Positions 3,478-43,151 of a stretch of 64,000 bases of DNA are shown in pieces. Origin of the DNA: an uncultured Chitinophaga sp. (GTDB lineage: Bacteria; Bacteroidota; Bacteroidia; 2-12-FULL-35-15); assembly GCA_964549315.1 (NCBI GenBank), contig CAZJUY010000007.1, positions 37,567 to 101,566 on the forward strand, in the 5' to 3' direction. The position numbers were made by a program, and so were the translations under genes. Numbering within the stretch: the first letter of the stretch is position 1; every line of letters begins with the position of its first letter. The notes below the pieces were generated by a model that saw nothing but the letters and a program-made list of their open reading frames with translations, was not told the origin of the DNA and did not search any database.

Positions 3478-3888
3478 TTAATCCGCTTTAGTTGTTGTTT
3501 GTTTGTTTATTACTATTTTTTTAGGAGGAACAACGCTTTCCTTTATACCTGTTTGCAATTTTGCCAATGCTTTTGCAACTTCTGTTTGTTTGCTTTTTAC
3601 AACTAGCGAATCTTTTACAACTATGTACTGTGTTCTTAATTCTTTTATTTCATTTGTTAATCTGTTTAATTTTCTAACTTGATCGTCTGCATAATACCCG
3701 TTTGCTATGTAGCAGATAGCCAAAAACGAAAGAAAAAAAATGAATGGTAAATGTTTTATTGTTGTTTGCTTTGACAAAAAACTACCACTTACAACATTTG
3801 CAACAGAACGCACCATTTTATTGTCCTTTGCAGGATTATCCTTTTTGGATTCTTCAACTTTTGGTTTTTCCTTAAACTTGTTTGTCAT
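3478..3888 (-). CDS. ftsL: FtsL-like cell division protein
   Basis: Single TM helix followed by a coiled coil; lies between rsmH and ftsI. Confidence 0.8.
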   Translation of the reverse strand: MTNKFKEKPKVEESKKDNPAKDNKMVRSVANVVSGSFLSKQTTIKHLPFIFFLSFLAICYIANGYYADDQVRKLNRLTNEIKELRTQYIVVKDSLVVKSKQTEVAKALAKLQTGIKESVVPPKKIVINKQTTTKAD

Positions 3889-4784
3889 TATAATTTTTCT
3901 GCTACTCTTAATTTTGCACTTCTTGCTCTATTGTTTTGCTCTATTTCTTGTTCTGTTGGAACAATTGGTTTTCTTGTTATTTGTTTGAATGGTGTTAGTT
4001 GGTTTCCATAAAAATCTTTTTCCACTTCTCCTTCAAATTTTCCACTTCTCATAAATTTTTTTACTAACCTATCTTCTAATGAGTGATAAGACATCACTAC
4101 TAATCTTCCGTTTGGTTTTAAAACATCTAAACTTTGTGTCAACAATTCTTGCAGCGCATCTAGTTCTTTATTTACTTCTATTCTCAAAGCTTGAAACACT
4201 TGTGCGTAGTACTGATTTTCTTTTCCTTTTCTTACACATTTTGTAATCGCAGCTTTTAAATCGTCTACCGTTTCAATTTTTTTTTCTTTTCGTGTATGAA
4301 AGATTATTGATGCCAGATAACCAGCATTATTTACTTCTCCATATAGTTTAAAAACACGTTTTAACTCTTCTTCGCTGTAAGTGTTTAAAATATCAGCAGC
4401 AGTTAGGTTGCTATTTCTATCCATTCTCATATCCAACTTTGCATTAAATCGAATTGAAAATCCTCTTTCTGCTTCGTCAAATTGATGAGATGAAACACCT
4501 AAATCTGCTAGTAGCCCATCAATTGGAAGTGCGTTGTACAGTTTTAAAAAATTTTTCAAAAACCTGAAATTTTGTTTTATCAAAACAAATTTTGGGTCAT
4601 CAATTTTGTTTTTTACTGCATCATCATCTTGATCAAAAGCAAATAATTTTCCTGTAGTTAAATGCTTTAATATTTCTTTTGAATGACCACCACCACCAAA
4701 TGTTACATCCACATAAATACCTTCTGGGTTGATGTTTAAACCGTCTATACACTCTTTTAAAAGAACTGGGTTGTGATATTCCAT
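3888..4784 (-). CDS. rsmH: 16S rRNA (cytosine1402-N4)-methyltransferase
   Basis: H.PVLL.E, DVTFGGGGHS, DLGVSSHQ, FQALRIEVN, SYHSLEDR and SAKLR motifs; dcw context. Confidence 0.97.
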   Translation of the reverse strand: MEYHNPVLLKECIDGLNINPEGIYVDVTFGGGGHSKEILKHLTTGKLFAFDQDDDAVKNKIDDPKFVLIKQNFRFLKNFLKLYNALPIDGLLADLGVSSHQFDEAERGFSIRFNAKLDMRMDRNSNLTAADILNTYSEEELKRVFKLYGEVNNAGYLASIIFHTRKEKKIETVDDLKAAITKCVRKGKENQYYAQVFQALRIEVNKELDALQELLTQSLDVLKPNGRLVVMSYHSLEDRLVKKFMRSGKFEGEVEKDFYGNQLTPFKQITRKPIVPTEQEIEQNNRARSAKLRVAEKL

Positions 4785-5251
4785 TACTCGCTTGGTGTTG
4801 GATTTATTCCACCCATAACATCTTCAGCAAGTTTTTCGAAATTGCTGGTGCCTTCATTGATAAATTTCTCATAGGATTTTTTATCCCATATTTCAATTCT
4901 ATCTCCAGCAGCAGCCATTACCACATTTTTATTAATTCCTGAGAACGACATCATATCTTTTGAAATCAACAATCGTCCTGTACTATCTAATTCTACTGGT
5001 ATCACACCGTAGTTGAACATTCTGATGAATTCCACATTTTTTTTCACAAACTTGTTTAGCTTGTTTACTTCCTTCACCATCTCATTCCATGTAGCCATTG
5101 GATAAAGCTCAAGCGACTTGCTAAATATGCTTCGCTTCATTACAAAGCCCGCATCAAGCACACTGGTAAGCTGTTTTTTGAATGCAACAGGCAGCATTAC
5201 ACGACCTTTCGCATCAGCATTACATTCATATACTCCAAATAGGCTATTCAT
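4784..5251 (-). CDS. mraZ: Division/cell wall cluster transcriptional repressor MraZ
   Basis: Two AbrB-like repeats (DAKGRVMLP, LDSTGRLLI). Likely start is ATG at 5251; the ORF-track extension to 5296 runs into the repeat boxes. Confidence 0.93.
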   Translation of the reverse strand: MNSLFGVYECNADAKGRVMLPVAFKKQLTSVLDAGFVMKRSIFSKSLELYPMATWNEMVKEVNKLNKFVKKNVEFIRMFNYGVIPVELDSTGRLLISKDMMSFSGINKNVVMAAAGDRIEIWDKKSYEKFINEGTSNFEKLAEDVMGGINPTPSE

Positions 5252-5290
5252 AGTGGTTTTAGCTTTGTGGCGTAAAAATAAAGAAAATTT

Positions 5291-5320
5291 TACCACTTTT
5301 TACCACTTTTTACCACTTTT
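5291..5320 (-). promoter_or_regulatory. Three perfect 10-bp direct repeats (AAAAGTGGTA on minus strand), MraZ binding boxes
   Basis: TACCACTTTT x3 on plus strand, about 40 bp upstream of the mraZ ATG; GTGG cores one helical turn apart, as in known MraZ operators. Confidence 0.85.
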
Positions 5321-5513
5321 GTTGAAAACTTTTGGTTTTGAACATATTTAAAAGCTTTTTTATTGATTATATAAATCGACTATAATGCCAATAAAATTGA
5401 TATTTGTAAGAGTTTTTGTACTTGTAAAATATGCTTCTTATTAGCTTCCCAATTTCTAATAAGTTTAGCTTTTAGGTAAAAAATCAAATTTTCAGTAAAA
5501 TGAAATAGAAAAG

Positions 5514-5521
5514 TATCTTTG
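5514..5521 (+). promoter_or_regulatory. Bacteroidota housekeeping sigma -7 box TATCTTTG upstream of pabB
   Basis: Matches TAnnTTTG; 3 nt before ATG 5525. Confidence 0.6.
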
Positions 5522-5524
5522 TCT

Positions 5525-6823
5525 ATGCTTCAAAAAGTATTACTAGAAAAAAAGTACAACGCAGTCAATGTCAATATTGAAGCACTTGATAGCCATTTTG
5601 ATACAGTATGTATTTTTGATTCTAATAATTCAAGTAATGTTTCCCAGGCGAATAATTATTCTAAATTAATAGCCATTGGTGCTGTTCGTGAGTTGATGTT
5701 GAACTCTAAAAAGGATAGCTTGAAACAATTACAAGCATTTATTGATTTCAAAAAATCCTGGTCATTTGGCTTCCTTTCTTACGATTTAAAAAATGAAATA
5801 GAAAATTTGAAGTCTGAAAATGATGATGGGCTTAATTTTCCATTGTTGCATTTTTTTGAACCAAAATTTATAGTAGAAATTTTTAAAGAAAAAATTGAAA
5901 TAAATTTTGACGATTCAATTGTCAATAATATTGAGTTGGATAATCTAAAAACAATTTTGTTTTCTGATAAAAAGAAAAATGATTCTTTGAATAGTTCAAT
6001 CCAATTGAATGAAAAGATAAACAAGTCAGGGTATATCGATGCAGTTAATGGTTTAAAAAAGCATATTGCTCTTGGTGATATATATGAAGTGAATTTTTGT
6101 AAGGAATTTTTTTCTTCTGATGCAGGTATTTTTCCAATCGCAGTTTACGAAAGGCTAAATAATATTTCAGCAGCACCATTTGCTTCTTTTTGTAAATTCA
6201 AAAATCATTACTTGCTCTCATCAAGCCCCGAACGTTTTATCCAAAAAAATGATAAAAAATTAATTTCTCAACCAATCAAAGGAACAGCAAAACGTTCAAT
6301 TGATAAAGAAGAAGATGATAATATAAAAAACGTGTTGAAGAATAATTTAAAAGAGCAAACAGAGAATGTAATGATTGTTGATTTGGTTCGAAATGATTTA
6401 TCAAAGCTTGCAAAAAAAGGAAGTGTATGTGTAGATGAATTATTTGGTGTACATAGTTTTAAGCAAGTGCATCAAATGATTTCTACCATAAGTTGTGAGC
6501 TGAAAAACGATTTAAAATTTACAGAAATTATTGCGGCAACATTTCCAATGGGTTCAATGACGGGTGCTCCAAAAGTAAGTGCAATGAAATTAATTGAACA
6601 GTTCGAAAAAACAAAAAGAGGACTGTACTCAGGTTCGGTTGGGTATATCAAACCTAATGGAGATTTTGATTTTAATGTAGTAATAAGGAGTATTTTGTAT
6701 AATAAGGAAAATAAATATTTATCATTTATGGTAGGCAGTGCAATTACTTCAAATGCAGATGCAGAACAAGAATATGAGGAGTGTATGTTAAAAGCAAAAG
6801 CAATGTTTGAAGTGTTGAAATAA
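5525..6823 (+). CDS. pabB: Aminodeoxychorismate synthase component I (chorismate-binding MST family)
   Basis: GDIYEVNF, SSSPERF, PIKGT, ENVMIVDLVRND, FPMGSMTGAPK, YSGSVG, NVVIRS motifs. ATG 5525 preferred over the ORF-track TTG at 5519. Confidence 0.85.
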   Translation: MLQKVLLEKKYNAVNVNIEALDSHFDTVCIFDSNNSSNVSQANNYSKLIAIGAVRELMLNSKKDSLKQLQAFIDFKKSWSFGFLSYDLKNEIENLKSENDDGLNFPLLHFFEPKFIVEIFKEKIEINFDDSIVNNIELDNLKTILFSDKKKNDSLNSSIQLNEKINKSGYIDAVNGLKKHIALGDIYEVNFCKEFFSSDAGIFPIAVYERLNNISAAPFASFCKFKNHYLLSSSPERFIQKNDKKLISQPIKGTAKRSIDKEEDDNIKNVLKNNLKEQTENVMIVDLVRNDLSKLAKKGSVCVDELFGVHSFKQVHQMISTISCELKNDLKFTEIIAATFPMGSMTGAPKVSAMKLIEQFEKTKRGLYSGSVGYIKPNGDFDFNVVIRSILYNKENKYLSFMVGSAITSNADAEQEYEECMLKAKAMFEVLK

Positions 6824-26937: not shown

Positions 26938-29631
26938 TTATTTTTTAAGAAGCATTTTTTCTTTTTTATTTACACCAAACTCTAAAATACGATCAATAAA
27001 ATCGTATGGTTTGTAGCCATTGATGGCTGTTTGATGAAAGATACAAGTAGCGGGTGTCATACCTGGCAATGAATTTACTTCAATAAAAATTATTTCCACT
27101 TTTTCATCGTTGTTTATTCTTACAAAAGCATCAATACGGCAATATCCTTGAACATTTAGAGCTTTTGCTGCATTGCCCAATGTTTGTTTTACGATATCTG
27201 AAATTTTTTGTCGTTCTGCAGGGTCGGCAGAATAGCGAGCAGGTGTGATGTTTTGTCCTTGTCCTGCAAGGAATTTTTCTTCTAAGGATAAAACTTCTCC
27301 TTCGCTTAAGGCTTCAGATGCCTCAAATACTTCGTAAACAATATCTCCATTTTTATCATATTTTGTAAGCATTCCACCTGTAATTTCTAAAAAATGTTTT
27401 GCCTCTTTTCTGCTAATTAATTCTTCAACAAGTATTACATTTTTTTGTGGAAATTCTTCTTTATCTTTTATATGTAACAAATCTGCTGCTAATTGATTTA
27501 GCATTTCTTGTTTGCGGAAAATAAGTGTAGCAAAAGCATTAAACTCTTCGGGTGTTTTTATTTTTTTTACTGCAGAAGAACATCCATCGTCAACAGGCTT
27601 TGCTATAAAAGGATATTTTATTTTTTCTTTGATAGTTTTTAAAACGGAATCTTTATCAGAACTCCAATCTTTTTCGGCAACAAGTAAATGTTCTGCAACT
27701 AAAAAACCATTTTGTTTTAAAATTTCGTTTGTTCTGTATTTATCAATTGTAATTTGTGAACTATCTACACCACTTCCGTTATAAGGCAACCCTATTTTTT
27801 CTAAATTTGCTTGAACAGCACCGTCTTCGCCTGGCCTGCCATGCAGTGCAATAAATACAGCATCCACCGTTTTTGCTAATTCATCATAAGTAAACCGTTT
27901 TGGTTTTGCTAAATTATCTGCACTCACATATTTAGTTGTAATGGATGATGCTTCATCAATAATCTGTTTTACTAAATCATGAATTTTATAGTTTTCAATT
28001 TTTTCTTTTATATCATCTGCATTGTCCTTCAACAAAATATTGATTGGAATTTGATACATGATGTGTTCATCTGCATTGCCCGTTAAAAAAATGGGAATAG
28101 GTTCATATTTAGTAGAAGAAGCTAATTTTTCGTAAATATTTCTTCCGCTTTCAACAGAGATATGTCTTTCAGATGAGTAACCGCCAAGGATTACAGCAAC
28201 TTTGATTTTCTTAGTAGTTGATGATTTGTCCTGCTTTATTGATTCATCCAATTGATTTAATAATTTTTTAAATACAACTGCATATGAGTTAGCTTTTATT
28301 CGTTGTGCCAAAGAAGTACGAATAATATAGGTCAAAAATTGAGATGGATTCAATCCTATTTCTGCAGCTTGATGAAAGAAAAAAGAAGAAGGCATCATCC
28401 CAGAAGTAGTATTAGGATCATTCAAAAATATTTTTCCATCTGTAGAAAGGAAGCCATCAATACGAGCATACACATCAAAATTTAAAGCATAAAATAATCG
28501 TTCACATTCTTTTCTTATTGCTTGAATTTGCTCGTTAGGCAAATCAATTGGTGTAATTTTTCTTGATAAACCAGGCAAGTACTTTGAACGATAATCAAAC
28601 AATTCTTTTCCTTTTCTTATTTCAGTTGGAGGCAGAGCGATTGCTTTCCCATTTTCATCTTGAGCAACAATACATGAAAATTCTTTGCCATCAATAAATC
28701 CTTCAATTAACACAGTTGTTTCACCATCTATTGCTTCTAAAACGGCTCCTTCTTTTTCTGTTGTAAATAGTTTATCTAAAAAAGAAATTAAATCGGCAGG
28801 ATGATTTATGATTGTTGAATTGATTTTTACTGGTAACGAAATTCCTTCACGAATATCTGCAAGCACACGAACAAAATTATTTTTTTCTTCTGCTGATTTG
28901 TTTTTCCATTCTGTTGCATCTACCCATTTTGTGAAAAAAGCTTTCTCCACAGCTTCCATAAAAGAGAAATTATCATCTTTTGAAAGAATAGTTACACCAA
29001 TAGATGAACCTTGGTTAGCTGGTTTTATAACTAATGGAAATCCAATTTCTTTTTTTACTTTTTCAAAAACACCTTTGCAATTCCCAGTGATATAATCGTT
29101 TTTATCAATTGTAATAAATTTCGGACTATTGAATCCTGCACTCACCATCATTCTTTTTTGAATGCTTTTATCAATACCAATTGCAGAAGGCAAAACACCA
29201 GAGCCTGAATATGGGATTCCTAAAAATTCAAACAGACCTTGAATCTTCCCGTCTTCACCAAATGGACCATGTAAACACAAAAAAGCAAAATCAAAATAAG
29301 TTCTTAAATCATCTGCATTGATTTTTTTTCCAATTTTATTTATCATTTCAAGTTGATCTGAAGCGTCAAATTCTCCAATTTGCTCAGCATACACTTGAAA
29401 ATCGCCTTGTTTATTTGGTATAAATTCTACTGGAGGATAAAAATCACGAACACTGCCTTTGTAAATAAATTCCCAATTGAGTAAAACAAAATTTCCAAAA
29501 CTATCTACAAAAACAGGTACAGCATCAAAAAGTGATTTGTTTAAATTGTCATAAACAGTTCTTCCGCCAGCAAATGATATTTCTCGCTCCTTTGAAAATC
29601 CACCGAAAATGATTCCTATTTTTATTTTCAT
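26938..29631 (-). CDS. ddl: Tandem two-domain D-alanine--D-alanine ligase family protein (897 aa)
   Basis: Two full Ddl motif sets: GGFSKEREIS / GGYSSERHIS, LHGPFGEDG / LHGRPGEDG, KPANQGSS / KPVDDGCSS, RIDGF / RIDAF, DPNTTSGM / EVNSLPGM. Confidence 0.88.
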   Translation of the reverse strand: MKIKIGIIFGGFSKEREISFAGGRTVYDNLNKSLFDAVPVFVDSFGNFVLLNWEFIYKGSVRDFYPPVEFIPNKQGDFQVYAEQIGEFDASDQLEMINKIGKKINADDLRTYFDFAFLCLHGPFGEDGKIQGLFEFLGIPYSGSGVLPSAIGIDKSIQKRMMVSAGFNSPKFITIDKNDYITGNCKGVFEKVKKEIGFPLVIKPANQGSSIGVTILSKDDNFSFMEAVEKAFFTKWVDATEWKNKSAEEKNNFVRVLADIREGISLPVKINSTIINHPADLISFLDKLFTTEKEGAVLEAIDGETTVLIEGFIDGKEFSCIVAQDENGKAIALPPTEIRKGKELFDYRSKYLPGLSRKITPIDLPNEQIQAIRKECERLFYALNFDVYARIDGFLSTDGKIFLNDPNTTSGMMPSSFFFHQAAEIGLNPSQFLTYIIRTSLAQRIKANSYAVVFKKLLNQLDESIKQDKSSTTKKIKVAVILGGYSSERHISVESGRNIYEKLASSTKYEPIPIFLTGNADEHIMYQIPINILLKDNADDIKEKIENYKIHDLVKQIIDEASSITTKYVSADNLAKPKRFTYDELAKTVDAVFIALHGRPGEDGAVQANLEKIGLPYNGSGVDSSQITIDKYRTNEILKQNGFLVAEHLLVAEKDWSSDKDSVLKTIKEKIKYPFIAKPVDDGCSSAVKKIKTPEEFNAFATLIFRKQEMLNQLAADLLHIKDKEEFPQKNVILVEELISRKEAKHFLEITGGMLTKYDKNGDIVYEVFEASEALSEGEVLSLEEKFLAGQGQNITPARYSADPAERQKISDIVKQTLGNAAKALNVQGYCRIDAFVRINNDEKVEIIFIEVNSLPGMTPATCIFHQTAINGYKPYDFIDRILEFGVNKKEKMLLKK

Positions 29632-33599: not shown

Positions 33600-33713
33600 A
33601 AGAACCTATGTTGATTTGTACAAATGTAATAAATAGAAACAAAAATCTGGCAATAAAATAATTTTGAGTCCAGTCAATTATATTTGTTAAATTTAACTCG
33701 AAAAACTAATTTT

Positions 33714-34535
33714 ATGGAATACGAGATAAAACCTGAAAAAAAGTTTAGTCTTAATTTTAAAGAAGTTTGGAGTTATAAAGAACTATTCTATTTTTTTACT
33801 TGGCGTGATATAAAAGTAAAATATAAACAAACTGTACTTGGTTTTTTGTGGGTTTTGCTTCAACCATTGGCCATGACTATCTTATTTAGTTTGAGTTTAG
33901 GGAAAGTTATTTCTAATGCTTCTGAAATTAATATGCCTTATCCTTTATTTGCTCTAAGTGGATTAATGATTTGGAATATTTTTTCTTCAGGAATTACGAA
34001 TTCAGGTAATAGTATGATTACGAATTCAAATATCATTAAAAAGGTTTATTTTCCTAGAATTATTATTCCTGTTTCTTCAATTTTGGTTTCCTTGTTCGAT
34101 TTTTTTGTTACGTTTTTTATTTTTTTTTGTGCTATCATTTATTATAACGTAACAATTGATATAACACATTTTTTATTTTTTATGCTTATTAGCATATTAA
34201 TTATTACCATTTCAACTTTGGGTCTAGGTTGTTTATTAGCCGCATTAAACTTAAAATACAGAGATTTTAGATATATTATTCCATTTTTATTACAAGGCTT
34301 ATTGTTTTTAAGCCCTATTATCTATCCAATTTCTATTATTACTAACCAAAAAATAAAATACTTTTTGGCTTTAAACCCTATTTATTCAGCAATTGAATTT
34401 TCAAGATACTCTATAATAAAGCAAGAGATGGATGTGACATTGATGTCGATAAGCGTTTCATCCGCATTGTTTTTTTTATTGTTTGGAGTTTATTATTTCA
34501 AAAAAACAGAATTGTTTTTTGCCGATATCGTTTAA
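33714..34535 (+). CDS. wzm: Polysaccharide ABC exporter permease (Wzm)
   Basis: WRDIKVKYKQTVLG.LW.LLQP, KKVYFPR, YRDFRYIIP, SPIIYP, LNP; ATG 33714 preferred. Confidence 0.92.
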   Translation: MEYEIKPEKKFSLNFKEVWSYKELFYFFTWRDIKVKYKQTVLGFLWVLLQPLAMTILFSLSLGKVISNASEINMPYPLFALSGLMIWNIFSSGITNSGNSMITNSNIIKKVYFPRIIIPVSSILVSLFDFFVTFFIFFCAIIYYNVTIDITHFLFFMLISILIITISTLGLGCLLAALNLKYRDFRYIIPFLLQGLLFLSPIIYPISIITNQKIKYFLALNPIYSAIEFSRYSIIKQEMDVTLMSISVSSALFFLLFGVYYFKKTELFFADIV

Positions 34536-34537
34536 CT

Positions 34538-35776
34538 ATGAAACCAATTTTAGAAATCCAAAATATTTCAAAAAGCTATAACATTCATTCTCAGAATCAA
34601 GCTTATTTGAGCTTTAGGGACTCCTTGGTATCGTTGTTAAATTTCACGAAAACGAAAAAAGAAAAGTTTTTCGCTTTACAAGACATATCATTTACTATTG
34701 AACCTGGTGATACATTTGGGATTCTTGGCAAAAATGGAGCTGGAAAATCTACACTTTTAAAAATTCTTTCAAAGATTACTCCTCCAGATTCTGGGAAGAT
34801 CATTTCTAGAGGAAGGATTGCAAGTCTATTAGAAGTGGGTACAGGTTTTCACGCAGAATTATCAGGTAGAGAAAATATTTTTATGAATGGTTCCATACTG
34901 GGGATGAAAAAAAATGAAATAAAGAAAAATTTTGATGCAATTGTAGAATTTTCAGGCGTAGAAAAATTTATAGATACTCCATTAAAACATTATAGTTCAG
35001 GTATGCAGTTGCGTTTGGCTTTTGCAGTTGCGGCATTTCTTGAAAATGAAATTTTAATTATTGATGAAGTTTTGGCGGTAGGAGATGCAGACTTCCAAAA
35101 AAAATGTATAGGTAAAATGAGCGAAATAAGTAAAAGTGGAAGAACTATATTATTTGTAAGTCATAATATTTCAGCTGTTAAGAATTTATGCAACAAAGGA
35201 ATAGTTTTAGAGGGAGGGAAATTAATATTTCAAGGAAATTCACAAGATTCAATTCAGTTTTATCAATCATCAAGCATATCAAACAATAGCTATTTACATA
35301 AAGGCGCCATTGATTCTGCAATTGGCAATGAAAATATTAGAATAATCGAATTTAAAGTAACTCCATTAAAAGGAAACATGATTGAAACTTCTTCTGGTTT
35401 TATATTTGAGTTAGTATTTTATAACTATTCTGAAAAAATTAATTTGGATGCAACATTCGAATTATCCTCGATTGACGATGTTGTAATTTTCCATTCGGGT
35501 GTAGTAATAACAGATTCAAAAGATTCTGAAATAGGATTATATAAGGTAAACTGTACGTTTCCTGCGAATATATTAAATGCAGGTATGTATAAATTCAAAA
35601 TTATTTTTGGAAAAAACAGAAAAGAGCTTCTCTATATGCATTCTAATATTGTAGATTTTGAAATATTGAATGAAAAACTTGGTGTGATTCATCAGCATAC
35701 TGTTCCAGGTGTACTGACGAATAAGATAATTTCAGACATAAAAATTTCTACAATAGAAGATAATATTTTAAATTAG
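34538..35776 (+). CDS. wzt: Polysaccharide ABC exporter ATPase (Wzt) with C-terminal carbohydrate-binding domain
   Basis: [46 protein letters not shown]; ~160-aa beta-rich C-terminal extension. Confidence 0.92.
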
Positions 35777-37209: not shown

Positions 37210-37263
37210 TCAAAGAAATAAATCTAATATATCATTATATTTGTTTTGTTTTTAAACGTCAAC

Positions 37264-38421
37264 ATGTTACAAAATAAAATTGTGGGTTATCAGGCTTGCA
37301 GCAAATGTATTTTAGACACAAACGATGATTCGGAAATTTATTTTGATGAACGTGGTATCTGTAATTATTGTAAGGAATATGAGGTCATTAATAGTAAAAA
37401 TCGATTAGAGGATAGTGCATTTAAAGAAGAGGAGCTTAAAATATTAGTTGATAAAATAAAAAGTAGAGGCCATAAAAATAAATATGATTGTGTAATTGGA
37501 GTAAGTGGAGGTGTAGATAGTACATACTTGATATACAAAGCCACAGAGTTAGGTCTACGCCCACTAATCGTTCATTATGACAATGGATGGGATTCTGAGT
37601 TGGCTGTTATTAATATCGAGAATATTGTTAAAAAACTAGATTTAGATTTAATAACTTATGTTAATGATTGGCATGAATTTAAAGATATCCAATTAGCTTT
37701 TTTAAAAGCGTCAGTTTTGGATATTGAATTAATAACAGATCAAGCAATTTTAGCGGTATTATATAATACTGCAATTCAATATAAAATTAAATATATCCTA
37801 TACGGCACAAACATAACAACTGAGGCTATTTTGCCAAAAAGTTGGTATCATTGGAAGATCGATTTATTGAATATTACTGGAATTCATAAGAAATTTGGAA
37901 CTTTACCGATAAAAACATACCCTCAATTGGGTTTTTTTAAGCATTATTTTATCACAAAATTTATTAAAATTGAAAGTGTCCATTTATTAAATTATTTAAA
38001 TTATAATAAAAATAAAGCCAAAGAAACAATTGTTAAGGAGTTGAATTGGAGGGATTACGGAGGGAAGCATTATGAGTCAATTTTTACTAGGTTTTATCAA
38101 GCGTATATTTTACCCGCTAAATTTAAGATTGACAAAAGAAAAGCTCACTTGTCAACTCTTATATGTTCAGGACAAATTTCTAGGGAAGAAGCCTTAAAAG
38201 AATTGACAAAGCCTTTGTATGAAAAAGACAAGTTTCAAGACGATTATGAGTATGTTTTGAAAAAATTAGGATTAGAAGTGAGCGAGTTCGAAGATTATAT
38301 GTCTTTACCTGTTAAGTCTCACTTGGACTATCCTTCATATTTTAAAAGCCATTATAAATATCAAAAATGGCTTTCATTATTTCTTAGTAATACTATATTT
38401 TTATTTAAAAAAAAGAAATGA
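37264..38421 (+). CDS. N-acetyl sugar amidotransferase (WbuX/WbpG-like, PP-loop ATPase)
   Basis: CSKC and CNYC, YDCVIGVSGGVDS, DNGW, GGKHYES, SREEAL; directly upstream of the hisH/hisF-like pair. ATG 37264 preferred. Confidence 0.88.
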   Translation: MLQNKIVGYQACSKCILDTNDDSEIYFDERGICNYCKEYEVINSKNRLEDSAFKEEELKILVDKIKSRGHKNKYDCVIGVSGGVDSTYLIYKATELGLRPLIVHYDNGWDSELAVINIENIVKKLDLDLITYVNDWHEFKDIQLAFLKASVLDIELITDQAILAVLYNTAIQYKIKYILYGTNITTEAILPKSWYHWKIDLLNITGIHKKFGTLPIKTYPQLGFFKHYFITKFIKIESVHLLNYLNYNKNKAKETIVKELNWRDYGGKHYESIFTRFYQAYILPAKFKIDKRKAHLSTLICSGQISREEALKELTKPLYEKDKFQDDYEYVLKKLGLEVSEFEDYMSLPVKSHLDYPSYFKSHYKYQKWLSLFLSNTIFLFKKKK

Positions 38422-39029
38422 TAACGATTGTCGATTATGGTTTAGGGAATTTAGCATCAATTAAAAATATGTTAAAAAAAATACATATTTCTTCTGTTAT
38501 AACGTCTGATCCAAATTTAATAGCAAATTCTACTAAATTAATATTACCAGGAGTTGGTTCTTTTGATTTTGGTATGGAACAATTAAAACAGTTGGATTTA
38601 ATCTCAATTTTGAACCAAAAAGTACTGATTGAAAAAACACCAATACTAGGGATTTGTCTCGGAATGCAGCTGCTTACGAAGCGAAGTGAAGAAGGTGTTT
38701 TGTCTGGCCTTGGGTGGATAGATGCTGAAACATTAAAATTTGACTTTCCAAGCCATGAGAATTTAAAAGTACCTAATATGGGTTGGAATGAAGTAAGCAT
38801 TCAAAAAAAAAGCAGATTAACTCAAAATCTTGAAAACAACTCTAGGTTTTATTTTGTTCATTCATACTATGTAAAGTGCAACATTGAAGAAGATACATTG
38901 TTAAAAACCAATTATGGAATTGAATATACATGTGCTATAGAAAAAGAAAATATTTTTGGTGTTCAATTTCATCCTGAAAAAAGTCACAAATTTGGTATGC
39001 ATATATTAAATAATTTTTCGAAAATATAA
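38418..39029 (+). CDS. Glutamine amidotransferase HisH-like (WbuY/HisH2), glycan-locus copy
   Basis: DYGLGN, PGVGSF, GICLGMQ (catalytic Cys), FYFVHSY, QFHPEKS. Confidence 0.9.
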   Translation: MITIVDYGLGNLASIKNMLKKIHISSVITSDPNLIANSTKLILPGVGSFDFGMEQLKQLDLISILNQKVLIEKTPILGICLGMQLLTKRSEEGVLSGLGWIDAETLKFDFPSHENLKVPNMGWNEVSIQKKSRLTQNLENNSRFYFVHSYYVKCNIEEDTLLKTNYGIEYTCAIEKENIFGVQFHPEKSHKFGMHILNNFSKI

Positions 39030-39032
39030 ATT

Positions 39033-40958
39033 ATGAGGCGTCCAAGAGTTATTCCAACACTTTTATATAATTACAGGGGTCTTGTAAAGTCTAAAAAATT
39101 CAAGGGTCATGTTTACATAGGAGATCACCTGAATGCAATAAAGATATTTAATGAAAAAGAGGTAGATGAAATAATATTTTTGGATATCGAAAAAGGGATA
39201 AAAAATAAAAAACCTGATTTAGAATTAATAAAAGAAATAGCGAGTGAATGTTTTATGCCTTTGTGTTATGGCGGTGGAATATCAACAGTGGATGAAGTTA
39301 GAGAGATATTAAGATTGGGAGTTGAGAAAGTTGCAATAAACAGCAACGCATACAGAAAACCCGAATTGATAAAAAGTATTGTTCAATCTTTTGGAAGTCA
39401 AAGTGTGGTTATATCGATTGACGTAAAAAAAAATAAAAATTCTAGATATAGTGTTTATATAGACAACGGGCAAACAGATACAGGAATAGATCCCATTTCC
39501 TATGCTGTAAATATGGAAAGACTTGGTGCTGGAGAACTATTATTAAATTCAATTGATAGAGATGGTACTTATGATGGATATGATACTTGGCTTATAGAAC
39601 AAGTAAGCAAGGCGGTATCTATTCCTGTAATTGCTTGTGGAGGAGGAAACGGGGTAAAAGATTTTTTAAATGCTATTAGAAATGGGGCATCTGCAGTAGC
39701 AGCTGGTAGTTTGTTTGTTTTTTATGGAAGACTAAAAGCTGTGCTAATTAATTTTCCTACAAACGAAGAACTTTTTTTAATATTCAATAAACAAGAAACA
39801 TATACAAGAGACTATTTTAATTTAAAAATTTTTCATATTACAACTTGGTATCCTCATAAAAAACAGGAGATAGAGGCAGGATTCATTAAGGAGCACATTG
39901 ATTCTTTGAGAAACTATTGTTATAACTATGTGTTTAATCTTGATTTTGTTGAATCGGAAAGAACATTATTAAAATTTGAATTTTTCAAAGAATCGAATTA
40001 CGAGTATATTTATACATGTAAAACTAGGATAAAAAATACTTTAATAAAAGAGTTGATTGCTTCAGCTTGGTTTTTTTATGTATTCTTAAAGCACAAAGGA
40101 AACAAATTTGATGTTGTTAATATTCATATTGCATATCCTGTTGCTACTTTTCTTTCTTTCTTTAAAAGAATTATTAGGATTCCAATTGTAATAAATGAAC
40201 ATTGGTCTGCATACCATTTTAATTTCTATGTTGATAAAAATAAGAGGGGGTTAAGAAAAGTGAAAAAAATATTTTTTATGTGTGAAAAAATTTTTGTAGT
40301 ATCAAAATCATTAGCGTTAGATATAGTTAATTTTTCTGGTAATAAAAGATTAGAATATTCAATAATACCTAATATCGTAGATAATAAAATTTATTCCATA
40401 AAACGAGATTTTTTGCCTTCGTCTCCAACATTTTTAATGGTTAGTATTTGGTCAAATATTAAAAAACCAATAATTATAATTGAAGTTTTTAAAAAAATAG
40501 TTTCAGCTTTTCCAGATGCAATTTTAAGAATAGGAGGATATGGTATTCAAATTGAAGCTATGGAAAAAAAAATAAAAGAATTAGATTTGGAAGAAAATGT
40601 GTTCTTATTAGGTAAATTAAATAGAATAGAGGTTGCGAATGAGCTTAATAAATCAACAGCTTTAATACATTCATCTTCATATGAAACATTTTCGGTAATT
40701 TGTGCAGAAGCTATTTCCTGTGGCGTCCCTGTTATAGCTTCAAATGTTGGTGGAATTCCAAGTTTTATTAACAACCAAAATGGGATTTTGGTTGATGACG
40801 AAAGTATTGAGGAATGGTACGATGCTATAACTAAAATGATAAAAGACAGGGCTATTTTTAATGATGTTGACATTTCCAAAAAAGCACATTTACAGTTCTC
40901 TCCAGATAATGTTGGCGAAAAATATTTTGAAGAATTAAAGAAACTTATCCAGAAATGA
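39033..40958 (+). CDS. Fusion: HisF-like cyclase (WbuZ/HisF2, ~aa 1-255) plus GT4 glycosyltransferase (~aa 264-641)
   Basis: HisF part: VDEIIFLDI, PLCYGGGI, GAGELLLNSIDRDGT, VIACGG, AVAAGSLFVF. GT4 part: KIFHITTWYP, NEHWS, IPNIVD, ETFSVICAEAISCGVPVIASNVGG. One uninterrupted frame. Confidence 0.88.
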   Translation: MRRPRVIPTLLYNYRGLVKSKKFKGHVYIGDHLNAIKIFNEKEVDEIIFLDIEKGIKNKKPDLELIKEIASECFMPLCYGGGISTVDEVREILRLGVEKVAINSNAYRKPELIKSIVQSFGSQSVVISIDVKKNKNSRYSVYIDNGQTDTGIDPISYAVNMERLGAGELLLNSIDRDGTYDGYDTWLIEQVSKAVSIPVIACGGGNGVKDFLNAIRNGASAVAAGSLFVFYGRLKAVLINFPTNEELFLIFNKQETYTRDYFNLKIFHITTWYPHKKQEIEAGFIKEHIDSLRNYCYNYVFNLDFVESERTLLKFEFFKESNYEYIYTCKTRIKNTLIKELIASAWFFYVFLKHKGNKFDVVNIHIAYPVATFLSFFKRIIRIPIVINEHWSAYHFNFYVDKNKRGLRKVKKIFFMCEKIFVVSKSLALDIVNFSGNKRLEYSIIPNIVDNKIYSIKRDFLPSSPTFLMVSIWSNIKKPIIIIEVFKKIVSAFPDAILRIGGYGIQIEAMEKKIKELDLEENVFLLGKLNRIEVANELNKSTALIHSSSYETFSVICAEAISCGVPVIASNVGGIPSFINNQNGILVDDESIEEWYDAITKMIKDRAIFNDVDISKKAHLQFSPDNVGEKYFEELKKLIQK

Positions 40959-42028
40959 AATTAATAAATCAGAATATAATCATTGTTTCAAATGAGAAAT
41001 GGGGTAATATGTGGTACTCTAAACATAATTATGCAAATCAATTGTCTAAGAAAAACAATGTGTTTTTTTTGAATCCTCCACATCCCTTTCACATGTTTAA
41101 TCTTTTCAAAAAAAAAATTACATCATTTAGGGTTTCTGATTCTTTAACTGTATTAGAGTATAAAAATATATTGCCTACAAGCCTGCCATTCTTGTGGAAA
41201 ATTAATGATTTTATCATTATTAGGGCTATTAATATTTTTTTTAAAAAAAATAAAATTAACAATATCATTTTTTGGACATTTGATCCAATTAGATTATCCC
41301 TGCCAGAATTATTAAATCCTAAAAAAATTATTTTTCATGCAGTCGATAAATATCAATTTAAATATCCTTCTGAAGAAATACTTTCAAAAAAAAGCGACTT
41401 AATATTATGTGTTTCTGACACAATATCATCCCAATATAAATCATATAATAAAAACATTTATACAATACCTCATGGTGTCCCTGACGATGAGTTTTTGCCA
41501 GTTGAGCTTGTTAAAAATGATAGAATTACAGGACTTTTTATAGGGAATAATGATAGTCGAATTGATTTTGAATTTACAAAAAAAATTATCGAGGCATTCC
41601 CTTCTATCATTTTTAAGTTTGTTGGAAGAGTTAATGTTGATAATGAAGAGTCATTAAATATATTTTCAGGAAAATATCCCAATGTTTTATTTATTGGTGA
41701 AATCCCATATCCTCAGCTTAAATATCAAATACGGGAGTCTAATTTTTGTTTTATATTTAAAAAAGAAAATTATCCTGGAAATAATATATCTAGCCATAAA
41801 ATGCTGGTTTACCTTTCTCAAGGAAAACCTATTGTGTCTACAATTTTTTCAGAATTTCAAACAGAAAGAGATTTGTTATTTATGTCTAATGATTTAAACA
41901 ACACAATTGAAAATATTAATAATATTGTATCAAATGAAGAGGAGATGTATTTAATTCAAAAAAGAATCGAATTTGCAAAAAAACATTCGTATAAAAATAT
42001 ATTAATAAACATTGAAAAACTCCTATAG
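40955..42028 (+). CDS. Glycosyltransferase, GT-B fold (TuaH-like)
   Basis: W...W.SKH.YA, FHAVD, IPHGV, S.HKMLVYLSQGKPIVST. Confidence 0.75.
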   Translation: MKLINQNIIIVSNEKWGNMWYSKHNYANQLSKKNNVFFLNPPHPFHMFNLFKKKITSFRVSDSLTVLEYKNILPTSLPFLWKINDFIIIRAINIFFKKNKINNIIFWTFDPIRLSLPELLNPKKIIFHAVDKYQFKYPSEEILSKKSDLILCVSDTISSQYKSYNKNIYTIPHGVPDDEFLPVELVKNDRITGLFIGNNDSRIDFEFTKKIIEAFPSIIFKFVGRVNVDNEESLNIFSGKYPNVLFIGEIPYPQLKYQIRESNFCFIFKKENYPGNNISSHKMLVYLSQGKPIVSTIFSEFQTERDLLFMSNDLNNTIENINNIVSNEEEMYLIQKRIEFAKKHSYKNILINIEKLL

Positions 42029-42032
42029 AGCA

Positions 42033-43151
42033 ATGAAGCACGTTGTAATGATAATTTCTAATAGTCCTAATCCTTCTTATTTTAGGCCATTTGCAGCGTT
42101 CTGTAGAAATGATACGGAAGTTAAAATTAGTTTTGTTTTTTTGCATACAGCACCCCCAAGCTTAATGGAAGAACTTGAAAACTTGGGTTCAAAATGTTAT
42201 TACTTACCTTTTTTTCAAGAAAAGCCAAAGCCTTTTCAGTACATTCGATTAACAATTCAACTCTTTTTTTTATTTTTGAAAATAAAACCTGATGTTGTTC
42301 AAACGAATCTTTTTGATGACAGTTTACCTGGATTATTAGCTGCCAGAATAGCAAGAGTAAAAAGCAGAATTATTACCAAGCAAGATACCAATTTTCATAT
42401 TTTATATTATCCTCAGTATATTAAATTTGATAAATTCAATAATTTTAATGCCACTATAATTGTTCCTGTATCTGCTGAGGTTTTAGATTTAATAATGAAT
42501 TACGAACATCCTTCTAAGTACAAAATTAGAAATGTTCATCACGGGATGGATGAAAATTTTATTACAAGTGCAACAACATCTGAAATTAGTCAGTTTAAGA
42601 AAAAATATGGTTTAGAGAATAAATTTGTTATTGGTTGTGTTAGCAGGTATGTTGAAATAAAAGGGTACAAGCAAATAATAGAAGCAGCTGAAATTTTATG
42701 CAGCAAACATGAAAATTTTGTTTTTTTAGGTATGGGAAGTGGACCCCAAAAAACGGAATTGTTAGAACTTATTAAAGAAAAAAAATTAAGTGATAAATTT
42801 ATTTTGACCGATAAAATTGAATATTCGCTTATTCCTTCAGCATATAAAAGTTTTGATGTTTTTATTCATAATTCAATAAATGAAGCTTTTGGTTTTGTGT
42901 TTCCTGAGGCTATGTTTAATAAAATACCAATTGTGTCCACAAATGTTGGGGCAGTTAGAGATGTTCTTAAACATAAAGAAAGTTGTTATTTTACTCAATT
43001 TAATTCTGTAGCGGATATTGTCAATGGAATTGAATATATGTTAGAAGAAGATCGTGCTCAAATTGCGGAACGAGCATTTGAAATTTGTAAAAATAATTTT
43101 TCTATAGAAAAAATGTGGAAAAACTATAGAGAACTCTTTTTATTAAATTAA
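42033..43151 (+). CDS. Glycosyltransferase family 4
   Basis: VHHG, EIKG, DVFIHNSINEAFGFVFPEAM...PIVSTNVG; ATG 42033 preferred. Confidence 0.88.
   Translation: MKHVVMIISNSPNPSYFRPFAAFCRNDTEVKISFVFLHTAPPSLMEELENLGSKCYYLPFFQEKPKPFQYIRLTIQLFFLFLKIKPDVVQTNLFDDSLPGLLAARIARVKSRIITKQDTNFHILYYPQYIKFDKFNNFNATIIVPVSAEVLDLIMNYEHPSKYKIRNVHHGMDENFITSATTSEISQFKKKYGLENKFVIGCVSRYVEIKGYKQIIEAAEILCSKHENFVFLGMGSGPQKTELLELIKEKKLSDKFILTDKIEYSLIPSAYKSFDVFIHNSINEAFGFVFPEAMFNKIPIVSTNVGAVRDVLKHKESCYFTQFNSVADIVNGIEYMLEEDRAQIAERAFEICKNNFSIEKMWKNYRELFLLN

Follow-up and report, generated by a model that had tools for sequence, protein, structure and literature searches.

A HisF2 barrel and a GT4 glycosyltransferase in one reading frame

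The acetamidino system of surface sugars is established as a three-component one, known as WbuX/WbuY/WbuZ, WbpG/HisH2/HisF2, or AglX/AglY/AglZ. Here we describe a locus in which the HisF2 component of such a system continues in frame into a glycosyltransferase (GT) of family GT4. It lies in a window of 64,000 nucleotides of DNA from an uncultured Chitinophaga sp. (GenBank assembly GCA_964549315.1, contig CAZJUY010000007.1, positions 37,567 to 101,566 of the forward strand). The gene in question, at 39033..40958 on the plus strand, is one ATG-initiated open reading frame (ORF) of 641 amino acids without an internal stop, both in the ORF listing and on direct reading of the DNA, and the computed mass of its product, HisF2::GT4, is 73.5 kDa. 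Residues 1 to 252 (39033..39788, plus strand) form a HisF2/AglZ/WbuZ (beta-alpha)8 barrel domain, residues 253 to 263 (39789..39821, plus strand) form an interdomain linker, KQETYTRDYFN, which is modeled with low confidence, and residues 264 to 641 (39822..40958, plus strand) form a complete GT4 domain of the GT-B type. Pfam matches His_biosynth at residues 6 to 231 (E-value of 1e-58), Glyco_transf_4 at residues 348 to 450, and Glycos_transf_1 at residues 464 to 606. The original prediction, made by a model from the letters of the DNA, had read this stretch as an in-frame fusion with a linker of about 10 residues; the single stop-free ORF, with its Pfam and NCBIfam domains, bears this out, and the linker measures 11 residues.

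In alignments, residue 264 of HisF2::GT4 pairs with residue 1 of stand-alone GT4 homologues. Nothing is therefore missing from the GT domain, whose first codon stands where a start would be expected. Codon 264 itself (39822-39824) reads TTA (Leu), no ATG follows in frame until codon 416, 152 codons downstream, and a scan of the in-frame codons from 238 to 291 found no ATG, GTG, or TTG. What the original prediction gave as fact about this stretch proved correct throughout. The closest alternative start past the junction is the TTG of codon 292, 28 residues into the GT fold. Separate translation of the GT domain from an internal start, which the original prediction had called unlikely on account of the TTA and of some 150 codons without an ATG, is rejected as implausible on this distribution of start codons. 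An ATG occurs in the linker only in protein P0005 (locus L001) and is not conserved across the fused loci. HisF2::GT4 is predicted to be a genuine bifunctional protein of its full computed mass.

The fusion is not unique to this assembly, a possibility that the original prediction had raised against itself. A 91-kb contig from another strain and sequencing run (locus L088; SRR18313630) is 98.7% identical in nucleotides over 17.9 kb, without gaps. There are 26 differing positions inside the fusion gene, and the junction, including a run of seven T's just before the linker, is the same. In all, ten full-length homologues were found at 45 to 98% identity, and those at 66, 64, 50, and 45 to 47%, which keep the junction, come from NCBI metagenome-assembled genomes (MAGs), JGI and ENA metagenomes, and Logan assemblies. 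Seven further loci, in which the nucleotides have diverged, likewise have an in-frame junction free of stops (the loci with an in-frame junction are the window, L088, L089, L001/L002, L003, L006, L007, and L012). In every junction with readable DNA, the codon in place of the ancestral GT methionine is TTA, TTC, CTA, CTC, or CTT and never a start codon. These counts derive from 90% clusters; a search at 50% clustering returned only P0003 as a representative and hence gave an undercount. A scan of GTDB species representatives with the GT domain as the query (one genome per species; closest match, 45% identity) found the fusion in four, all of them Bacteroidota MAGs (L006, from an Arcticibacter sp., L007, L008, and L012). 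In a weakly resolved neighbor-joining tree of the GT domain, the fused sequences fall into two subclades beside a WbuX::GT4 sequence and two unlinked sequences. A single origin of family A, the fusions of the window type, was considered and not adopted, and the topology fits one origin or two. We read these sequences as a real fusion that is maintained by selection.

The N-terminal domain belongs to the AglZ/HisF2 family by sequence, fold, gate residues, and gene context. The NCBIfam model AglZ_HisF2_fam (NF038364) matches residues 3 to 246 (model positions 2 to 246 of 248) with 338 bits (cutoff, 310), and the score with the WbuZ model TIGR03572 is just under its cutoff (290.3 versus 299.7). 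Foldseek matches this part of the model to HisF structures with a template modeling (TM) score of ~0.8. The domain is 39% identical to Thermotoga maritima HisF and keeps R5, E46, K99, D130, and E167 (168), with D11 replaced by L11. Across 11 fused homologues R5, E46, K99, and E168, which align with the T. maritima gate residues, are invariant, as is D130. We take R5, E46, K99, and E167 to be the ammonia-tunnel gate, as in T. maritima HisF (1GPW), and the barrel is presumed to serve as an ammonia conduit. Membership in the bifunctional imidazole glycerol phosphate (IGP) synthases (HisHF/HIS7) does not follow from this likeness: because D11 is lost (D130 being kept) and the gene lies outside a his operon, HisF2::GT4 is not an IGP synthase. 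The fused homologues also share invariant glycine-rich segments (GGG80-82, N103, G203-G204, and A224-G225-S226), which we take to be the substrate-phosphate-binding segments of T. maritima HisF, and the domain may have kept a capacity to bind a phosphorylated ligand.

The C-terminal domain has the features by which CAZy recognizes GT4 enzymes of the GT-B fold, namely, two Rossmann-like domains (Glyco_transf_4 and Glycos_transf_1) and an EX7E motif, here E551-E559, which is invariant in the fused homologues. BshA and MshA are the nearest solved folds and sequences for residues 264 to 641 (Foldseek TMt of ~0.75; ~17 to 21% identity), and Foldseek found no solved chain that matches both the HisF2 and the GT4 domains. 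In the AlphaFold2 model of HisF2::GT4 both domains are folded confidently (mean predicted local distance difference test [pLDDT] score, 87.5), and linker residues 253 to 260 fall below a pLDDT of 50. We predict that the domain is a complete retaining-type GT4 of a Bacteroidota subfamily which normally works with the product of the adjacent gene. This gene, U357 (40955..42028, plus strand), lies directly 3' of the fusion and probably encodes a divergent GT-B protein. It has no sequence match in Pfam or the Protein Data Bank and only a weak similarity to TuaH (1e-10). A U357 gene (~360 amino acids) directly follows the GT4 in most of the 80 species loci of this subfamily. The U357-containing GT4 loci (most of L004-L085) include some Campylobacterales MAGs, and the pair forms a conserved, uncharacterized two-gene module. 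Two copies of the same GT4 subfamily also occur in tandem within one polypeptide, P0121 (773 amino acids).

The gene neighborhood and other fusions of the system

The two partners expected of HisF2 are encoded directly upstream. The amidotransferase WbuX (37246..38421, plus strand) scores 289 bits with TIGR03573 (cutoff, 203) and carries the PP-loop motif SGGVDS at residue 87 and the Cys4 motif CSKC...CNYC. Its true start is probably the ATG at 37264. The TTG starts of this ORF (37246..37264) and of the downstream GT4 ORF (42012..42033) are probably too far upstream; in L088 the two genes are called at 385 and 372 amino acids, versus 391 and 379 in the window ORFs. The glutaminase subunit HisH2/WbuY (38418..39029, plus strand) scores 241 bits with TIGR01855 and matches Pfam GATase, with the catalytic Cys in GICLGMQ (residue 78 onward) and the His-x-Glu in FHPE (residue 185 onward). 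There is little space between the genes: wbuX and hisH overlap at stop and start (ATGA), a gap of 3 nucleotides separates hisH from the fusion, and the fusion stop overlaps the U357 start (ATGA). U357 is followed by a second GT4 glycosyltransferase gene, GT379 (42012..43151, plus strand; Pfam Glycos_transf_1), which is syntenic with L001, L003, L006, L007, L017, and L090 and is present in every HisF2::GT4 or WbuX::GT4 locus whose downstream region is covered.

The whole block, WbuX-HisH-HisF2::GT4-U357-GT4, is found in the window, L088, L089, L001/L002, L003/L008, L006, and L007, and in L012 up to the contig end. HisH and WbuX lie directly upstream of HisF2 in every fused locus examined. The source of the window is a low-GC (~30%) member of the Bacteroidota, and the locus is syntenic with MAGs labeled Bacteroidia and Arcticibacter. 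A Ham1 gene adjoins the start of the locus in the window, L001, L003, L089, and L090, and RelA/SpoT stands at its end in the window, L001, and L003. In the locus of the window, a dedicated precursor pathway for an amidinated sugar (fnl, wbp, pse, or leg) was not found. Locus L089 keeps the block without the WecE-like aminotransferase, the 333-amino-acid short-chain dehydrogenase/reductase, and the hexapeptide acetyltransferase of the window and is otherwise identical.

Upstream of the block, a Wzm/Wzt ATP-binding cassette (ABC) exporter is encoded at 33684..35776 (plus strand), with ABC2_membrane and ABC_tran annotated on the L088 and L089 orthologues. The presence of this exporter in a polysaccharide locus implies assembly of the polymer on the cytoplasmic face. 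The Wzt ATPase (34538..35776, plus strand) has 412 amino acids, far more than an ABC ATPase domain, and its C-terminal extension could presumably be a domain that binds the glycan terminus, of the kind known from other O-antigen ABC exporters. At the same Ham1 site the exporter differs among loci: it is Wzm/Wzt in the window, L088, and L089 and a Wzx-type flippase (Polysacc_synt) in L001 (region 5033-6370), L003, and L090 (region 3731-5068). Around a conserved amidination/GT core, one export route has been exchanged for another. Farther upstream, the minus strand at 26938..29631 encodes an 897-amino-acid protein with two tandem D-Ala-D-Ala ligase units (Dala_Dala_lig_N twice and Dala_Dala_lig_C in four stretches), which is kept at 893 to 895 amino acids in L089 and L090, where it adjoins Ham1.

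The original prediction implied that a fused HisF2 would be rare. The opposite was found: fusions of HisF2 are frequent, with HisH, WbuX, or a member of one of several GT4 families as the partner. When other HisF-GT4 architectures were searched for, as the original prediction had proposed, the C terminus of HisF2 turned out to be joined to three unrelated GT4 families, which have no detectable mutual similarity beyond the nucleotide-binding motif. Family A comprises the window protein and P0001-P0009, and its linker is nearly constant in length and not conserved in sequence. Family B consists of P0011 and P0017 (locus L087, 34% GC), and family C consists of P0036, P0043, P0048, P0052, and P0058 (locus L086, 68.5% GC, with a Pro-rich linker). 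In families B and C, for each of which one locus was checked, WbuX-HisH is again directly upstream.

The amidotransferase itself is tethered to the same kind of GT4 in two sister lineages. WbuX::GT4 proteins are encoded in L017 (4837..7146, plus strand; 769 amino acids) and in L090 (10001-12307, plus strand; P0122, 768 amino acids); the two proteins share 53% identity from end to end, and their GT4 domains are orthologous to that of the window (38 to 46% identity). In both loci U357 and GT4 genes follow, and L090 shares the Ddl-Ddl/Ham1 chromosomal site with the HisF2::GT4 loci. Neither HisH nor HisF2 was found within 6 kb on either side of WbuX::GT4 in L017 or within 22 kb in L090. This arrangement suggests an excision of hisH and of the hisF2 domain in which the tether was retained. 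Further fusions are HisF2::WbuX, HisH::HisF2, and GT4::U357. Taken as a chain, the fusions support a putative HisH·HisF2·WbuX·GT4(·U357) assembly.

Possible roles of the tether

We think it probable that HisF2::GT4 is a selected scaffold fusion by which the complex of ammonia supply and amidotransferase is bound to one particular GT4, itself usually a partner of U357. HisF2 and HisH2 are the presumed suppliers of ammonia to the amidotransferase, and binding of HisF2 to WbpG was predicted and confirmed by coimmunoprecipitation in Pseudomonas aeruginosa (PMC11445079). In the window, the HisF2 barrel, with its cyclase acid lost (D11 to Leu) and its ammonia-tunnel gate residues retained, would dock the separately encoded glutaminase HisH2 and hand NH3 to the ATP-dependent PP-loop amidotransferase WbuX, which would turn the N-acetyl group of a sugar into an acetamidino group. 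The short linker would tether this soluble complex to the glycan-assembly enzymes, and amidination would thus take place at or beside the glycosyl-transfer step. The parts look functional: the gate residues, the motifs of the HisH triad, the PP-loop and Cys4 motif of WbuX, and EX7E are intact, and both domains are folded in the AlphaFold2 model.

Why then would a cell confine amidination to the site of transfer? We lean toward amidination at or after the transfer of a common N-acetylhexosamine (HexNAc), because no dedicated nucleotide-sugar pathway covaries with the block. The absence of the aminotransferase and the acetyltransferase from L089, together with the missing precursor pathway, would fit a common HexNAc as the target, and such a target would provide a rationale for the confinement. 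More tentatively, we hypothesize that HisH2, HisF2, WbuX, GT4, and U357 might form one membrane-proximal complex in which the sugar is amidinated while it is held by GT4 or just after transfer, on a lipid-linked or growing glycan and not as a free nucleotide sugar. If so, HisF2::GT4, WbuX::GT4, HisF2::WbuX, and GT4::U357 would be interchangeable tethers of one complex, and the housekeeping UDP-HexNAc pool would be kept from amidination.

Several findings weigh against a scaffold. In the AlphaFold2 model the linker is disordered and the predicted TM score is 0.60, so that neither an interface nor an orientation of the two domains is defined with confidence. WbuX, HisH, and HisF are all missing within 6 kb in about 70 of the 80 species loci that carry the GT4 subfamily, and most of these unlinked loci retain the GT4-U357 pair; therefore, the GT4 is not intrinsically an amidino-sugar enzyme, and its core job is independent of amidination. 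Even the close relatives L009 and L011 retain GT4-U357-GT4 without WbuX. Moreover, the same GT4 is fused elsewhere to other neighbors, to a second GT4 in P0121 and to U357 in P0137, and joining to any adjacent gene may be easy for this GT4. All of this would be compatible with a neutral fusion of neighbors, the chief alternative, a possible but in our judgment rather unlikely history in which the stop of hisF2 was lost between coupled operon genes and the domains act independently, gaining only coexpression or stoichiometry. Such a history would not entail a complex that channels anything. Since the operon genes abut or overlap, with a gap of as little as 3 nucleotides, a single mutation could join them. 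However, the tether was kept while the GT domain diverged to ~40% identity, the linker of family A is nearly constant in length, and the joining of HisF2 to a GT4 arose independently with three unrelated families. The fusion of WbuX to the same GT4 where HisH and HisF2 are absent, itself conserved, likewise weighs against a neutral fusion.

The original prediction had gone further than an architecture and proposed that the fusion couples amidination to sugar transfer by channeling or by modification on the polymer. Physical coupling is supported by the WbuX::GT4 proteins, by the three HisF2::GT4 families, and by the coimmunoprecipitation of HisF2 with WbpG, whereas a fixed interface between the domains is not what the flexible linker and the predicted TM score suggest.

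It is improbable that the HisF2 domain has taken on a new role, such as binding a phosphorylated ligand or acceptor or supplying ammonia for chemistry in the GT4 site, in place of serving WbuX. The loss of the cyclase acid and the invariance of the glycine-rich segments, with their presumed phosphate-binding role, would fit such a change. However, both features may be shared with stand-alone HisF2 proteins, the domain scores above the curated cutoff of the ordinary AglZ/HisF2 family, HisH and WbuX are always directly upstream, and the binding of HisF2 to WbpG was demonstrated experimentally elsewhere. An artefact of sequencing or assembly, or a pseudogene, in which a frameshift at the T7 run (39768-39774) would hide a stop and a separate GT start, is the least credible explanation: one T fewer would indeed give a stop at ...NEELF*, as read from the DNA, but the same run and junction in the independent strain and run of L088, the seven further loci with different junction DNA, all in frame, and the lack of a frame-compatible start codon for a separate GT refute it in practice.

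We know of no work that settles at which stage acetamidino groups are added to bacterial and archaeal surface sugars or whether the amidotransferase forms a complex with glycan-assembly enzymes. As positive charges, which are rare, these groups influence adhesion, serotype, and recognition by phages. A tether that is conserved and has evolved repeatedly, joining an ammonia channel or an amidotransferase to a given GT, names the likely partner enzyme, and HisF2::GT4 and WbuX::GT4 are natural constructs with which the site and timing of amidination become directly testable.

Comparison with known systems

What is new is the architecture; the proteins themselves are already in public databases, unremarked, and their existence overturns nothing that is established. 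Full-text searches of the literature found no description of a HisF2-glycosyltransferase fusion, and in a survey of the his genes of Bacteroidota, hisF2 and hisH2 figure solely as additional copies (PMC8305728). In public databases HisF2::GT4 proteins are labeled plainly as HisF (for example, P0006 in NCBI), which is a practical problem of annotation.

The trios WbuX/WbuY/WbuZ of Escherichia coli O145, WbpG/HisH2/HisF2 of P. aeruginosa O5, and AglX/AglY/AglZ of Methanococcus maripaludis belong to the same three families and the same type of locus as the genes of the window, whose products all score above the cutoffs of TIGR03573, TIGR01855, and NF038364, respectively. In contrast to these, HisF2 of the window is not a stand-alone protein of ~250 amino acids but carries a complete GT4 at its C terminus, and the precursor pathways known from such systems (for FucNAc, ManNAc3NAcA, or Pse/Leg) were not found in the locus of the window. 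For the amidotransferase component, the structure of an N-acetyl sugar amidotransferase (NASAT; 8WEX) contains a PP-loop and a Zn-Cys4 site (PMC10607449).

IGP synthase HisH/HisF (T. maritima 1GPW and the fused eukaryotic HIS7) shares the fold, the gate residues, and the partner glutaminase with the window system. It differs in that HisF2 of the window has Leu in place of D11, so that no cyclase chemistry on the substrate phosphoribulosyl-formimino-aminoimidazole carboxamide ribonucleotide (PRFAR) is expected, and in that its fusion partner is GT4 and not HisH. BshA and MshA, retaining GT4 enzymes with UDP-GlcNAc as the donor, have the GT-B fold and the EX7E motif in common with the GT4 domain of the window but lack a HisF domain, and at ~17 to 21% identity their donor and acceptor are not transferable to it.

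Closest in kind are the other fusions of the system. In HisF2::WbuX and HisH::HisF2 proteins (P0053 of Kordiimonas lacus, annotated as N-acetyl sugar amidotransferase, and P0136), HisF2 is likewise fused to a pathway partner, and in HisF2::WbuX the amidotransferase holds the C-terminal place that GT4 has in the window. The partner there is the amidotransferase or the glutaminase, whereas in the window it is a glycosyltransferase. The WbuX::GT4 proteins (L017 and P0122/L090) have an orthologous GT4 and the same downstream U357 and GT4 genes as the window, and in them it is the amidotransferase itself that is tethered to the GT4.

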